Shown: positions 7,690 to 42,320 of the stretch, piece after piece
Layout of the letters: each line of letters opens with the position of its first letter
Numbering within the stretch: position 1 is the first letter of the stretch
NCBI RefSeq assembly: GCF_013167455.1
Contig: NZ_CP038328.1
Source: Escherichia coli O157:H7
GTDB lineage: Bacteria > Pseudomonadota > Gammaproteobacteria > Enterobacterales > Enterobacteriaceae
Strand: one strand, 5' to 3'
DNA length: 64,000 nucleotides
Notes under the pieces: model-generated
Databases searched by the model: none
Seen by the model: the letters and a program-made list of their open reading frames with translations, nothing else
What the model was told of the DNA's origin: nothing
Made by a program: the position numbers and the translations under genes

Positions 7690-7899
7690 GATCGATCTCC
7701 TTGTTTGTTAAGCCTTCGATCTCTAAAGCATTATCGGACTGATATGCCATGTTGGGAAGAAGGTTTTGATCAGTTTAGGAAATCATCTCATTGTGTCAAA
7801 AACAGCTACATAAGCCTGTACAATTATCTGTTTCGTAACCGGATATTGGTTTCATTATGGAGCACCGCTTACCTGCCCTATTATGTTGTGCCGGCAACA

Positions 7900-9699
7900 T
7901 TAATGAGTGGGAAGAGTCAACTTATATTGTAAATGATTCCTAAAGTCTTCCCCATCTTGCGCCTGAGGTATATACCGCTGGATTGCTTTTTGGTCCGCCG
8001 CCGCAAAACAAGAAAGTAATAAGATCTCAATGCTTTTGTCATTAATATAAGCGAAGATCATTCTTGCAAATTCGTATATAAACGCCCGATCCTGAGCGCT
8101 TAATAGTTTAATACAATATTTATTTTTAAGAGAATAAAGTATTTCAAGAAAAGCATCCGCAGCAACCTTCACGTTATTCCCGGCGTTCATATTATATATA
8201 TCTCTTGCACAGATAGAGTACAGAGAGAGTAAACAGCCATACAAATAATCATTTATTAACTCTTTTGTCCATTTTACTGGCAACCATGGTTTTATCTTGA
8301 CACCATGCATGCTACAGTCATGAAAAAGACATTTGCTGAAATTAACTCTTATCATATCAACATTAAAAAAATGACAGTTAATAAATTTTAAAGAATGAGT
8401 ATTTACGTTGTTAATTTTAACAGATCTAAACGAAATATTTTTGAATACATTATTTACTATATTGCTATTTGTTATTTTAACATCACCTAAACTGCCGTTT
8501 TCAAAACAACATTTTTTCAATATGCTTTCATTCACAACAGTGTGTGATAAATAGAGATTACTTATGTTTTGCTTTATTAATGCCACGTCATTAAAATGAC
8601 TATATTTAATAAAGCAACCATCATTGAGTAGTGTTTTAAGATTGATTAAATTACTTGCATCTTCACGTACCATCGTGGCAACTGGAACAGGCAGAGACAT
8701 GAAAACTTCTTCATTCACCATCAAGTGAATCATGCATTGCGTTCCCTTTGTCATATCCACACTTACGCTACAAATATCGTTGTAATGCGAAGAGTGCATT
8801 TCAGGAAACAGATTAAACACGGTATCTTGAAAGGCACTAAATCGTGTTAATAAATCCTGATAATGAACAGGTTTTGTTTCAAAATTATCATCAGCAAATC
8901 CAAGCACTATTGTATGCTCTACATCTAACGCAGTTTCAAATGACTCTTCTGTAAAATCATTATTTAAAACCTCACCTGACGTATTATCACTGTCATAAAA
9001 AGTGCTCATCAATGCGATATTGTTTGTTACAGCGTCTTTTGCAATATTTTCATTAATTGCATATCGCCTGCTATAATCATAAAAATGAAGAAACGCGTCC
9101 TTTATAAAGGATATATATTGTTCTTTGTTAAAGTCAATACGACTGTATAATTTTTCAAAAATCACATTCGCAATCTTACTACCCATAGTATGCCTGTATA
9201 ATAATGGGTGCGATTCAATCGTAAAATGCTTGTCTAATTGATGTTGTAATTTATTCTCATAGTCCAGTGGGAAAAGAAACTTTTGTCTTTCAAGTTTTCC
9301 ATTCGATCTGTTACGTATTCCAATAGAGATTCTTTCATTACCCGTTTTTATTTCAACTTCGTTATCTTCTGATTTACCCAGATATTTTTTAACATCAGTC
9401 TCGAAAGCATTACTAAAAAATGTATTAAATTGATAATCCGCTGTTGGAATATTTTCCGCGAGCAACACATCATTTTTTATGAGATCACTGTCAGCATTTA
9501 TTACTAATATCAGATGCAAGTAGATGGTATCCCATGTAGACAACTCACCCTTACGACTGGAATTTAATATCGCGAAAAATTCCCTCAGTGAATCGAGGAA
9601 ATTATCACTTTGATTCAATTGTGTGCATGGAAATGATGACGCTTGATCAGATATATTGTTTATCATATTAAAAATCACCCAAGAAAAACGATACTCCAC
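7900..9699 (-). CDS. Orphan 599-aa protein, A+T-rich, with a pentapeptide-repeat-like (beta-helix) tract; function unknown
   Basis: Long uninterrupted ORF in a visibly A+T-rich block; a strict 5-residue hydrophobic periodicity over ~70 aa (…SLGDVKITNSNIVNNVFKNISFRSVKINNVNTHSLKFINCHFFNVDMIRVNFSKCLFHDCSMHGVKIK…); no Walker A or other catalytic motif recognised; K-12 has ybjQ and ybjP adjacent here. Confidence 0.6.
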   Translation of the reverse strand: MEYRFSWVIFNMINNISDQASSFPCTQLNQSDNFLDSLREFFAILNSSRKGELSTWDTIYLHLILVINADSDLIKNDVLLAENIPTADYQFNTFFSNAFETDVKKYLGKSEDNEVEIKTGNERISIGIRNRSNGKLERQKFLFPLDYENKLQHQLDKHFTIESHPLLYRHTMGSKIANVIFEKLYSRIDFNKEQYISFIKDAFLHFYDYSRRYAINENIAKDAVTNNIALMSTFYDSDNTSGEVLNNDFTEESFETALDVEHTIVLGFADDNFETKPVHYQDLLTRFSAFQDTVFNLFPEMHSSHYNDICSVSVDMTKGTQCMIHLMVNEEVFMSLPVPVATMVREDASNLINLKTLLNDGCFIKYSHFNDVALIKQNISNLYLSHTVVNESILKKCCFENGSLGDVKITNSNIVNNVFKNISFRSVKINNVNTHSLKFINCHFFNVDMIRVNFSKCLFHDCSMHGVKIKPWLPVKWTKELINDYLYGCLLSLYSICARDIYNMNAGNNVKVAADAFLEILYSLKNKYCIKLLSAQDRAFIYEFARMIFAYINDKSIEILLLSCFAAADQKAIQRYIPQAQDGEDFRNHLQYKLTLPTH

Positions 9700-10322
9700 C
9701 GAACTCCTCGCGCTTTATTATTATAAAAGCACAACACCTTTTATACTCATATTAATTAACGAAACACTGAAACAACTTGATTTATTCTTAGCTCAAATTC
9801 ACTTGTTCAAAAAGATTATATTTTATACCCACAACTGTAGCATAAATAATATTATCAAAAGTCAAAGCTGGGACTATCAAATTTCGCTCATTTTCAAAAA
9901 TACAACGTAATTTTGGCAATCATCTTAATAGCAGGATCTCTTATCGCATGTGAAAAATTTGTAATGATTAGACAATAACCGCGTTCATTTATCACGCGTT
10001 ATAAATGTGAAACTGGCTTCTTGCAGATGCTCTTAACCTCTACAGGAGGATTTATACCACCATTTCAGAACTATCATATTTACCTTAAATGATCATTTCA
10101 GCCATATAACACGCTCAACCTCACAAATGGTTTACACTGTCTATTGTTTGGGTAATTTAAGTAAGTCAGCTACGAGCAACCTTGAGTGGGTCGCCAGCAA
10201 TGGACTCAAACCCAATCAGGTGTTCAGATTGTTTCAGAATTGTATTAAAAACAATGTATTAAATAATCTGATAGCGTTTGGTCGTAGTGTGACGCAGACA
10301 GCAAGCTAATAAGGAAATGATT

Positions 10323-10838
10323 ATGCGCTACCGTTCACTATCTCTACTTATTCCATGTGCACTGCTGCTGAGTGCCTGTACCACCGTCACGCCAGCTTAT
10401 AAAGATAATGGTCCCCGCACCGGTTCCTGTGTCCAGGGGGGGCCTGACAGCGTGGCCCAACAATTCTATGACTACCACATTCAACATCGCAGCAATGACA
10501 TTACCGCCCTGCGCCCCTATTTGAGTGACAAACTGGCAACCCTACTTAGCGATGCCAGCCGCGATAATAGTCATCGTGAATTGTTAAGCAGTGATCCGTT
10601 CTCCAGTCGAACCACCTTGCCAGACAGCGCCCACGTTGCCAGTGCATCGACTATCCCTAATCGTGATGCCCGTAACATTCCATTGCGCGTGGATCTCAAG
10701 CAGGGTGACCAGGGCTGGCAGGATGAAGTGTTAATGATTCAGGAAGGCCAGTGTTGGGTGATCGACGATGTGCGCTACTTAGGCGGTAGCGTTCATGCCA
10801 CGGCGGGTACGCTCCGTCAGTCCATCGAGAATCGCTAA
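10323..10838 (+). CDS. ybjP: Lipoprotein YbjP
   Basis: MRYRSLSLLIPCALLLSAC lipobox signal peptide; 171 aa from the second ATG. Confidence 0.8.
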   Translation: MRYRSLSLLIPCALLLSACTTVTPAYKDNGPRTGSCVQGGPDSVAQQFYDYHIQHRSNDITALRPYLSDKLATLLSDASRDNSHRELLSSDPFSSRTTLPDSAHVASASTIPNRDARNIPLRVDLKQGDQGWQDEVLMIQEGQCWVIDDVRYLGGSVHATAGTLRQSIENR

Positions 10839-10871
10839 CGCCTTGATCAACCAATAAACCCCGTAAATTGT

Positions 10872-10900
10872 CCGGCATTTCGTGAGGAATGCCGACATTT
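10872..10900 (+). terminator. Terminator hairpin after ybjP
   Basis: ccggcatt-tcgtgagg-aatgccg(g) stem-loop followed by a T-containing tract. Confidence 0.4.
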
Positions 10901-41389: not shown

Positions 41390-41572
41390 TTAATCTAAAG
41401 GCAGATCTAACAAGGATATTGTTCTTCGATCTGCCTCTACTACCCTTCCCGATGTCCTACCCTTACGCACAAAATCCCCTGACGCATAAATCGAGAAAAA
41501 TGAATCGTACTCGAGGCAACTCTCACTTTTTCACACCAAATTAAAGTTTTGATCGCAATTACTTGAAATAAG

Positions 41573-41598
41573 CGTAATGGTTACTATAGTAAACATTA
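41573..41598 (+). promoter_or_regulatory. Palindromic operator/promoter element upstream of the toxin gene
   Basis: gtaatggttactatagtaaacattac is a 26-bp near-perfect palindrome (24/26) centred ~30 bp upstream of the toxin start; typical of TA autoregulation. Confidence 0.5.
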
Positions 41599-41614
41599 CC
41601 ACAAGGATGGATGT

Positions 41615-42001
41615 ATGGGTGTGTATAAGGCAAGGCGATTCAGCCAAAGCACGAAAAAACTTGGTATTCACGATAAAGTTCTCATGGCTGCCGCTGAAGA
41701 AGTGATGCAAGGCATATGGGAGGCTGATTTAGGTAGCGGTGTCATCAAAAAACGGTTACCCCTCCAACAAGGAAAGAGTGGTGGAGCCAGAACAATTATC
41801 TTTTTTAAATCAGCAAATCATGTGTTTTTTTATGATGGTTGGTCCAAGAGTGGTCTAAGCAGTAAAGGAAGCAAAGAAATCGAAGATGATGAACTGGCAG
41901 CCTACAAAAAAATGGCAAATGCATTTCTGGCCTTTAGCAATAAGCAAATAGAGGATTTGATCGAAACTGGCTTCTTGATTGAGGTGAAAAATGAGCGATA
42001 A
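41615..42001 (+). CDS. HigB-like (RelE/ParE superfamily) type II toxin
   Basis: 128-aa protein; motif QQGKSGGARTIIFF resembles the GKRGGSRIIYYF core of HigB-family toxins; toxin gene precedes and overlaps the antitoxin gene (higBA order); absent at this position in K-12. Confidence 0.65.
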   Translation: MGVYKARRFSQSTKKLGIHDKVLMAAAEEVMQGIWEADLGSGVIKKRLPLQQGKSGGARTIIFFKSANHVFFYDGWSKSGLSSKGSKEIEDDELAAYKKMANAFLAFSNKQIEDLIETGFLIEVKNER

Positions 42002-42320
42002 ATTACAAATGATGCTGGAAGATGCAAAGGAACTGAATGCACTGGGCCTGATGTCTGATAGTGAGGTTGATGCCATTGCCGTCATGGTCAAAGCCCGTGA
42101 AGTCAGCGCCCGTATAGCCAAAGTCAAATCAATGACGGGTGAAGAGATCAAAGCCATCCGCACCCGATACGGCATGTCACAATCCGTGCTGGCACATACA
42201 ATGGGAATGTCAAAAGAAAGTGTCTCGAAATGGGAACGTAATGAAATAAAACCGAGCGGCCCGGCACTACGTATTTTGAATACATTGGCAATAAAAGGGC
42301 CGGAAGTTTTTGCAAAGTAA
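41991..42320 (+). CDS. HigA-like antitoxin, XRE-family helix-turn-helix
   Basis: 109-aa protein with HTH (IRTRYGMSQSVLAHTMGMSKESVSKWERNE); start overlaps toxin stop by 11 nt. Confidence 0.65.
   Translation: MSDKLQMMLEDAKELNALGLMSDSEVDAIAVMVKAREVSARIAKVKSMTGEEIKAIRTRYGMSQSVLAHTMGMSKESVSKWERNEIKPSGPALRILNTLAIKGPEVFAK

Follow-up and report, generated by a model that had tools for sequence, protein, structure and literature searches.

How do genes come to stand between the core genes of a bacterial chromosome with no mobility gene beside them? We address this question for a stretch of 64,000 nucleotides from Escherichia coli O157:H7 (contig NZ_CP038328.1; hereafter the ‘window’, whose numbering is used throughout), in which a first-pass annotation made from the sequence alone had picked out three gene islets between positions 7690 and 42320: an orphan gene between ybjQ and ybjP (I1), sulfatase and phosphotransferase system (PTS) genes between artJ and rlmC (I2), and a toxin–antitoxin pair between rimO and dgcI (I3). 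These had been taken for independent acquisitions by homologous recombination of flanking core DNA, together forming an unusually dense accessory zone. The analysis presented here favours a different history, in which I1–I3 are probably old, lineage-structured presence/absence variants with three different origins and not three independent recent acquisitions. Recombination in the flanking genes is the best account both of how the islets move and of why mobility genes are missing.

At 100% identity to E. coli O157:H7 chromosomes, the window is separated from strain Sakai by four single-nucleotide polymorphisms and one 7-bp insertion/deletion across 43.6 kb; it runs in the reverse of the K-12 map order (from ltaE towards gsi). 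In a blastn comparison with K-12 MG1655, positions 2282–53053 align throughout save for three segments, the only unaligned ones within 7690–42320: I1 (7751–10304, 2554 bp), where the K-12 spacer measures ~46–49 bp; I2 (14947–18461, 3515 bp), where K-12 has 205 bp with repetitive extragenic palindromic (REP) elements; and I3 (41395–42390, 996 bp), where K-12 has 42 bp. The flanking pairs ybjQ/ybjP, artJ/rlmC and rimO/dgcI are all full length, can be aligned to K-12 right up to their start or stop codons, and occur in essentially all of the 5426 complete E. coli genomes that make up our distribution sample. In the Sakai annotation the islets correspond to ECs_0949/0950 (I1), ECs_0940–0942 (I2) and ECs_5399/5400 (I3); a literature search with the five I1 and I2 locus tags, which did not extend to the two I3 tags, found no functional study.

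Signatures of mobility were sought in several ways. ARAGORN finds no tRNA gene in the whole 64-kb window; a Pfam scan of all islet open reading frames (ORFs), and of small ORFs in the 600-bp non-coding part of I1, returned no transposase, integrase or other mobility domain; a permissive Rfam search of I1 gave no match, and the only Rfam matches elsewhere are RybB and two REP-like naRNA4 copies, all three outside the islets; neither direct nor inverted repeats lie on either side of I1, I2 or I3, and no terminal repeats or target duplications were detected at any of them. The combination of tRNA or tmRNA adjacency, integrase and direct repeats by which genomic islands are classically recognized is thus not seen at I1–I3. 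To this extent the first-pass annotation was right: the islets sit exactly between intact core genes, carry the gene content it described, and lack integrase, transposase, tRNA and direct repeats. Nor is any islet a repeated element, because flanked queries for I1 and I3 have a median of one match per genome, and probes from the islet interiors give a single match in nearly all genomes. The flanked query of I2 does give multi-copy matches, which are explained by a REP-derived naRNA4 (CssrE) copy at 13957–14037, between artM and artJ; a second naRNA4 match above the Rfam threshold lies at 54686–54763, and both are outside the islets.

Might the islets nevertheless be the cargo of insertion sequences (IS), integrases or phages whose mobility genes have since eroded, with I3 a captured plasmid addiction module? 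The 32% GC content of I1 is typical of foreign DNA, its primary insertion was necessarily non-homologous, and distant relatives of I3 (68–70% nucleotide identity) are found on plasmids of Providencia, Moellerella and Xenorhabdus. Against this stand the lack of any transposase or integrase fragment, terminal repeat or target duplication, and the fact that E. coli genomes contain no stretch of islet DNA in multiple copies. A plasmid-borne I3 was considered and rejected, as its close matches in plasmid collections are chromosome-sized or chromosome-derived records and only the distant relatives are true plasmid copies. We regard decayed mobile elements as a very improbable explanation.

The distribution of the islets speaks to their independence. 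With the filled state scored where a flanked query was covered over at least 80% of its length, I1 is present in 1124, I2 in 566 and I3 in 1130 of the 5426 genomes (10–21%). Joint frequencies were obtained by searching concatenated islet-interior probes and solving the overlaps from the size of the union and the number of places matched, which gives ~1106, ~566 and ~1145 genomes for I1, I2 and I3, respectively. Independence, as the first-pass annotation had it, does not survive this comparison. I1 and I3 (union 1280 genomes, 2251 places) overlap in ~971 genomes where 233 are expected if they were independent; I1 and I2 (1107 genomes, 1672 places) overlap in 565 against 115 expected, such that I2 is nested in I1 in 565 of its 566 genomes; and I2 and I3 (1216 genomes, 1711 places) overlap in ~495 against 119 expected. 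About 800 genomes outside O157 carry I1.

This correlated presence also follows phylogroup, as far as a proxy based on two Clermont markers can tell. Probes for chuA (from Sakai ECs_4380) and arpA (from K-12 b4017) were treated with the same set arithmetic. The former marker occurs in ~2254 genomes, and its union with I1 again comprises 2254 genomes (3363 places); because the union equals the chuA count, I1 lies wholly within chuA-positive genomes, which leaves phylogroups A, B1 and C without it. Some 946 I1-positive genomes carry arpA, as compared with an inferred ~940 chuA-positive, arpA-positive genomes (phylogroups D and E), an estimate that assumes every arpA-negative genome to be chuA-positive, and I1 thus looks near-fixed in phylogroups D and E. 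About 160 further I1-positive genomes lack arpA, for example a strain named ST648, which we take to belong to phylogroup F, and UPEC-455U, presumably a B2 strain, lacks all three islets. I3 is found in ~1047 chuA-positive and ~82 chuA-negative genomes. As to the arpA marker itself, its current RefSeq name is ‘espL4: type III secretion system effector EspL4’, and many genomes keep only a 451-bp part of the probe (taken from positions 5000–5799 of the K-12 record L091), annotated there as a ShET2/EspL2-family effector.

These results bear on the proposal that O157-like lineages acquired the islets in three separate events, each by recombination in the flanks, within an unusually dense zone. In its favour are the absence of mobility genes, tRNAs and repeats, the mosaic flanks of I2 and I3 (see below), the limited frequency of each islet (10–21% of genomes) and the ancestral empty site of I1. 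Yet presence of the islets is non-independent and follows the Clermont markers, their alleles have diverged with the lineages that carry them (dS, the synonymous divergence, is ~0.10 for I1, and I3 alleles differ by 1.3–1.5%), which makes the events old, and other genera have homologues of I2 and I3 in syntenic positions. Nor is the density out of the ordinary, contrary to what had been suggested for this stretch: strain EDL933 has 177 O-islands holding 26% of its genes (PMC3681947), and 177 islands over ~5.5 Mb correspond to ~1.1 expected per 34.6 kb, for which the Poisson probability of three or more is ~0.10, with islet DNA making up only 20% of the stretch. Three independent acquisitions are, in our view, unlikely, and the preferred reading remains that of old variants with three different origins, which we now take up islet by islet.

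I1 is the one islet to which acquisition applies. Our outgroup scan took one genome per species and used an ArtQ probe to recover 80 enterobacterial loci that take in the junctions of both I1 and I2; not one of these 80 loci encodes the I1 protein. The empty ybjQ–ybjP spacer, 125 bp long, is almost identical in K-12, UPEC-455U, E. albertii and two other Escherichia species (L003 and L004, ~88–92% identical to E. coli in amiD, ybjQ and rlmC), and is still recognizable in Salmonella and Citrobacter. Because this spacer is kept across the outgroups, the empty site is ancestral and I1 derived, and I1 reads as an insertion that took the place of the middle ~49 bp of that spacer. Residual spacer homology in the ends of I1 was looked for by global alignment with the K-12 spacer and rejected, as only scattered chance matches were obtained. 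At least one further allele exists at this junction: NZ_OY754377.1 carries an I1 variant in which only ~288 bp of the interior probe match and an extra hypothetical gene is annotated.

The islet is AT-rich (GC ~32%) and holds a single long ORF on the minus strand, which runs from 7900 to an ATG at 9666 (588 aa) or to a GTG at 9699 (599 aa). Its product is an orphan with a short pentapeptide-repeat stretch at residues ~356–468, scoring 34.6 bits for PF13599 (cut-off 38) and 20.2 bits for PF00805 (cut-off 20.2). Among 1.84 billion representative proteins its sole full-length match is its own cluster, the others being fragments or weak matches to the repeats, and E. coli and Shigella account for all its close homologues. 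O157, PapM-32-1 and W46 each have the ORF intact, and the ratio of non-synonymous to synonymous divergence among alleles (dN/dS 0.13–0.19, at dS ~0.10) indicates a gene that evolves under constraint and is, on this evidence, old and functional. That allele divergence shows I1 to have been resident in its carrier lineages for about as long as those lineages have been separate.

Annotation of this gene appears to have gone astray. Compared with the window, the Sakai copy is longer by a 7-bp insertion (TATTTGT) at 8466, which shifts the frame and splits the ORF into ECs_0949 and ECs_0950. In other strains the 599-aa ORF is intact, yet RefSeq labels it ‘pseudogene, missing C-terminus’ and ends the flagged coding sequence at 8464. 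Since that end adjoins the 7-bp Sakai insertion, the flag appears to be an annotation artefact, the evidence protein probably being a truncated one. In two other O157 strains, F6294 and 6535NalR, the same probe aligns over 1007 instead of 1000 bp (7 bp longer), and in NZ_CP086620.1 (strain RIVM_C039205) an IS2 copy disrupts the gene; I1 is thus open to IS hits, and none is carried in O157.

Attempts to assign the I1 protein a fold or a known identity gave little. AlphaFold2, run on a shallow alignment, returned a model (mean pLDDT, the predicted local distance difference test score, 40.7; pTM, the predicted template modelling score, 0.33) too poor for a fold search, and a sequence search against solved structures gave marginal pentapeptide-repeat matches only (E ≥ 0.08). 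Two candidate identities were rejected: EspX2, which is ECs0876 and hence a different gene from ECs_0949/0950, and the Hailong anti-phage effector HalA, for which the NCBIfam score is 23.6 against a required 250 bits over 53 repeat residues only, with no PADLOC hit.

I2 has a different origin. It comprises three ORFs only, all on the minus strand: a Cys-type, cytoplasmic sulfatase of 493 aa (14997–16478; PF00884, 98.9 bits), a PTS IIB protein of 106 aa (16490–16810; PF02302, 42.9 bits, with ascorbate-type similarity below cut-off) and a PTS IIC protein of the EIIC-GAT/ascorbate type of 447 aa (16832–18175; PF03611, 326 bits; NCBIfam NF009550, 964 against a cut-off of 583). The sulfatase has the formylglycine motif CMPARRELHTG at residues 49–59, in agreement with the signature C/S-X-P-X-R-X4-T-G, and its N-terminus, judged by eye, is unlike a signal peptide. 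A 21-nucleotide inverted repeat, 90% complementary, lies upstream of the IIC gene (18361–18406) and is likely the operator of the operon. Neither a IIA gene nor a regulator is encoded in the islet, and any IIA for this PTS would have to act in trans. Taken together, the gene products probably import a sulfated sugar or sugar acid through the PTS and then remove its sulfate in the cytoplasm.

Salmonella diarizonae also has these three genes between artJ and rlmC, with their order and orientation unchanged, and in Yokenella they adjoin artJ. Amino acid identities between E. coli and S. diarizonae are 85% for the sulfatase and 84% and 95% for the other two proteins, as compared with 90% for ArtJ and 88% for RlmC in the flanks; dS is saturated (1.5–2.3) and no lower than in the flanks, and the palindrome upstream of IIC is present in the S. 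diarizonae copy as well. With identities like those of the flanks, saturated dS and a conserved palindrome, I2 is no recent transfer. Within E. coli two alleles are found, the O157 type in ~385 genomes and a type ~91% identical to it in ~181 (for example PKF4), and the dS between them (0.43–0.82) is about the E. coli–E. albertii distance in neighbouring genes.

The empty state at this junction is old too. E. coli shows three states between artJ and rlmC, namely I2, a 37-nucleotide spacer with a single hairpin, and a ~207-nucleotide REP-bearing spacer, and the rlmC-side terminator of the I2-empty alleles is common to K-12, UPEC-455U, ST648, W46 and three other Escherichia species. Both the filled and the empty state are accordingly older than E. 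coli, and K-12 may be a loss variant at this junction, loss being as plausible as gain. The K-12 spacer (positions 33640–33844 of the record L002) consists of the 37-nucleotide hairpin terminator seen in UPEC-455U, ST648 and W46 with ~170 bp of REP/BIME (bacterial interspersed mosaic element) sequence inserted, a copy of the hairpin being left at each end of the insert.

I3 encodes, on the plus strand, a RelE/ParE-superfamily toxin of 128 aa (41615–42001; PF06296, 113.9 bits against a cut-off of 27) and a helix-turn-helix (HTH) antitoxin of the Xre/MqsA-like kind of 109 aa (41991–42320; PF01381, 37.8 bits; TIGR03830, 47 bits and below cut-off), the co-oriented antitoxin gene overlapping the toxin gene by 11 nucleotides. 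A palindrome upstream of the toxin gene (41574–41599) is likely an autoregulatory operator; its core, TTACTATAGTAA, is also found upstream of the Kluyvera homologue. Hairpins stand at each end of the islet (41396–41439 and 42349–42376), which replaces the 42-bp terminator spacer of K-12. From these features we infer a HigBA-like type II system with toxin–antitoxin activity.

Outside E. coli the nearest I3 toxins are those of Kluyvera (68–73% identity), and in two Kluyvera species the pair occupies the orthologous slot, from bssR/rimO to the 3′-end of gsiD, with its orientation unchanged; E. coli differs in having dgcI–pdeI between the pair and gsiD. The bssR–gsiD interval is variable among genera: in Kluyvera sichuanensis (L098, 9333–10707) the pair follows directly after bssR with no rimO between, and in another Kluyvera (L097, 3194–9666) a 6.5-kb block of PRD-regulator, mannosidase and PTS genes separates rimO from the pair. 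Within E. coli, the E-type and D/F-type alleles of I3 differ by as much as their flanks do, and because of this I3 must be old in those lineages. Its origin may lie in ancient residence with repeated loss or in insertion into a shared hotspot, with loss from K-12-like lineages no less plausible than gain.

Acquisition, as proposed by the first-pass annotation, therefore stands for I1 only, with loss equally plausible for I2, given its S. diarizonae and Yokenella counterparts, and for I3, given that of Kluyvera. The same annotation had named as the contrary outcome that all three islets would be present in most E. coli lineages with K-12 the deletion variant; the counts argue against this, although K-12 may partly fit it as a loss variant for I2 and I3. 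In its full form this history makes all three islets ancestral and treats K-12 and the lineages A/B1/C and B2 as deletion variants. It draws support from Salmonella, Yokenella and Kluyvera, where homologues of I2 and I3 occupy the equivalent slot, and from the occurrence of I1 and I3 in the chuA-positive groups. The latter are usually considered early-branching in E. coli. The difficulty is that the empty I1 spacer is kept base for base in E. albertii and two further Escherichia species, and independent deletions would not recreate it; no I1 protein homologue exists outside E. coli and Shigella; the rlmC-side terminator of I2-empty alleles is common to E. coli and three other Escherichia species; and an outgroup that has dgcI shows an empty rimO–dgcI site. 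We consider ancestry of all three islets decidedly unlikely, though somewhat less so than decayed mobile elements.

If the islets are old variants, how do they pass between lineages? The proposal that homologous recombination of flanking core DNA moves them is supported by mosaic flanks as well as by the lack of mobility signatures. Strain 2 HS-C is K-12-like over 25–40 kb (99.4%) and in rimO (99.8%), and its I3 has 2 differences from O157 in 996 positions. To the left of I3, in the last kilobase of rimO, 6 of 6 informative sites are K-12-like; to the right, the first 1.1 kb of dgcI has 14 O157-like against 3 K-12-like sites, with a mixture beyond. This pattern is the footprint of a double crossover that imported I3 together with part of dgcI. 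At I2, PKF4 (filled) and W46 (empty) are 99.4% identical in I1 and 99.6% in ybjP and ~1% apart left of I2; on its right the distance is ~5% over 1 kb (18.4–19.4 kb) and 1–2% thereafter, and the rlmC of PKF4 is an outlier among all genomes compared.

The O157 artJ allele (14215–14946, plus strand), which abuts I2, is likewise divergent and specific to O157: it is 91.3–92.8% identical to that of seven other E. coli and 90–92% to those of E. albertii and two other Escherichia species, with dS ~0.35–0.42, which suggests import from a divergent lineage. Next to I1, ybjP (10323–10838, plus strand) falls into three deep haplotypes that follow the I1 state. Among I1-positive genomes it is 97.6–99.6% identical, as compared with 94% to UPEC-455U and 86–87% to K-12 and 2 HS-C; the K-12 type is ~13% from the D/E/F type (dS 0.65) and the UPEC-455U type is intermediate. 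On the other side of I1, ybjQ (7366–7689) has a high dS of 0.20–0.25 between O157 and others. More broadly, positions 2–24 kb of the window are 92–98% identical between genomes as compared with 98.5–99.5% at 25–40 kb, in a qualitative comparison.

We propose the following sequence of events. Some 2.55 kb of AT-rich foreign DNA with one orphan gene would have been inserted inside E. coli, replacing ~49 bp, in what we presume was an illegitimate event, and I1 would then have been inherited with the linked ybjP haplotype. The counterparts of I2 and I3 in the same slot in other genera suggest that their filled state predates E. coli, as does the empty state in the case of I2 at least. Thereafter the islets may have been spread or erased between lineages by RecA-type double crossovers in the flanking core genes, following transfer of chromosomal DNA; such exchange would require no integrase, att site or repeats and would leave mosaic, unusually divergent flanks. 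Boundaries, gene content, lack of mobility features, co-occurrence counts, the empty I1 site of the outgroups, the synteny of I2 and I3 homologues and the mosaic flanks are observed; the direction of each gain or loss and the I2 substrate are inferred.

Several points weigh against this reading. O157:H7 is oversampled, contributing ~300–400 islet-positive genomes (~310 at ≥99% identity), which inflates the co-occurrence of the islets, and phylogroups were assigned from two Clermont markers by set arithmetic (to within ~20 genomes) and not from a tree. Evidence of recombination comes from a handful of genome pairs with few informative sites. Between O157 and PapM-32-1 there are 0–2 differences per 100 bp in the interior of I2 and 5–18 per 100 bp exactly at both edges, and so sharp a drop is unlike simple co-transfer of flanks; it needs later overwriting, and we read it as replacement of the flanks by the majority empty allele, which would be unable to enter a heterologous insert. 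For I3, the synteny in Kluyvera could perhaps reflect a shared hotspot instead of descent, and in the enterobacterial outgroup that has pdeI–dgcI (L100) rimO and dgcI are adjacent across a 40-bp hairpin spacer with no toxin–antitoxin pair, an empty site that fits insertion of I3 into E. coli as well as it fits ancient residence. A 109-aa ORF beside dgcI in this outgroup, which resembled the antitoxin in length and position, was rejected as such and is the 3′-end of rimO.

A further and more speculative possibility, which we hold only tentatively and think on balance improbable, is that the artJ–rlmC and rimO–dgcI junctions are trans-species presence/absence polymorphisms older than E. coli, under balancing or niche-dependent selection and spread by introgression, and that I1 is a constrained, lineage-restricted gene marking phylogroups D, E and F. 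Support for this comes from the two I2 alleles and the O157 artJ, which are as divergent as different Escherichia species.

What do these islets mean for the reading of E. coli genomes? They urge caution: a segment ‘absent from K-12’ need not have been acquired, and islets that lie close together should not be counted as separate samples of gene transfer. As a marker, I1 comes close to being diagnostic for chuA-positive, arpA-positive (D/E) genomes plus some arpA-negative (F-like) ones, and its gene is automatically flagged as a pseudogene though intact and constrained in most strains. The species-level divergent haplotypes of the art–rlmC region could mislead typing or phylogeny that uses these genes. 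Current understanding of E. coli genome evolution is unchanged by them: reference annotations have carried the islets from the earliest O157 genomes onwards, the mechanism has been published, and the pattern is a fairly ordinary one. Elsewhere in the window, rcdA and ybjL are separated by the RybB small RNA gene (30046–30124; 105 bits in Rfam), the same arrangement as K-12 has.

How, finally, do the islets compare with known systems? The I1 protein shares a short stretch of the right-handed beta-helix type with pentapeptide-repeat proteins, including EspX/NleL-type type III effectors of enterohaemorrhagic E. coli (EHEC), and one database source labels a member of its family ‘putative type III effector’; it differs from such effectors in that its Pfam scores are below or at threshold and that the 1.84 billion representatives hold no homologue outside the repeats. 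The I2 transporter resembles L-ascorbate-type PTS (UlaA/UlaB, SgaT/SgaB), its IIC belonging to the EIIC-GAT family above the PRK12997.1-1 cut-off and its IIB being of the PTS_IIB type, but it falls far below the equivalog cut-offs (43.6 against 138 for IIB and 321 against 380 for IIC). Its sulfatase has the CXPXRXXXXTG motif of formylglycine sulfatases and differs in apparently not being secreted, as judged by eye. I3 is like HigBA-type modules in placing the toxin gene first, in its overlapping genes, PF06296 toxin, Xre-type HTH antitoxin and upstream palindrome, and differs in that the antitoxin scores under the MqsA and NadS cut-offs and PADLOC gives no defence-system assignment for the toxin.

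As a class, I1–I3 are of the same kind as the O-islands of EDL933 and the strain-specific loops of Sakai, being O157 segments in a shared backbone that are absent from K-12. Their junctions also resemble those of the published model of exchange without mobile elements (Oliveira 2017, PMC5635113), as they lie between core genes, lack mobility proteins and have flanks that, in a qualitative comparison, look diverse and mosaic. Cargo differs at these junctions in other genera: several Citrobacter carry a histidine acid phosphatase between ybjQ and ybjP, and between artJ and rlmC both Enterobacter and Kluyvera have a two-component system, to which Kluyvera adds a molybdopterin oxidoreductase and cytochrome b pair. 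They are unlike the hotspots of the model in that each junction has two to three states within E. coli, in a small sample, with no rapid turnover.

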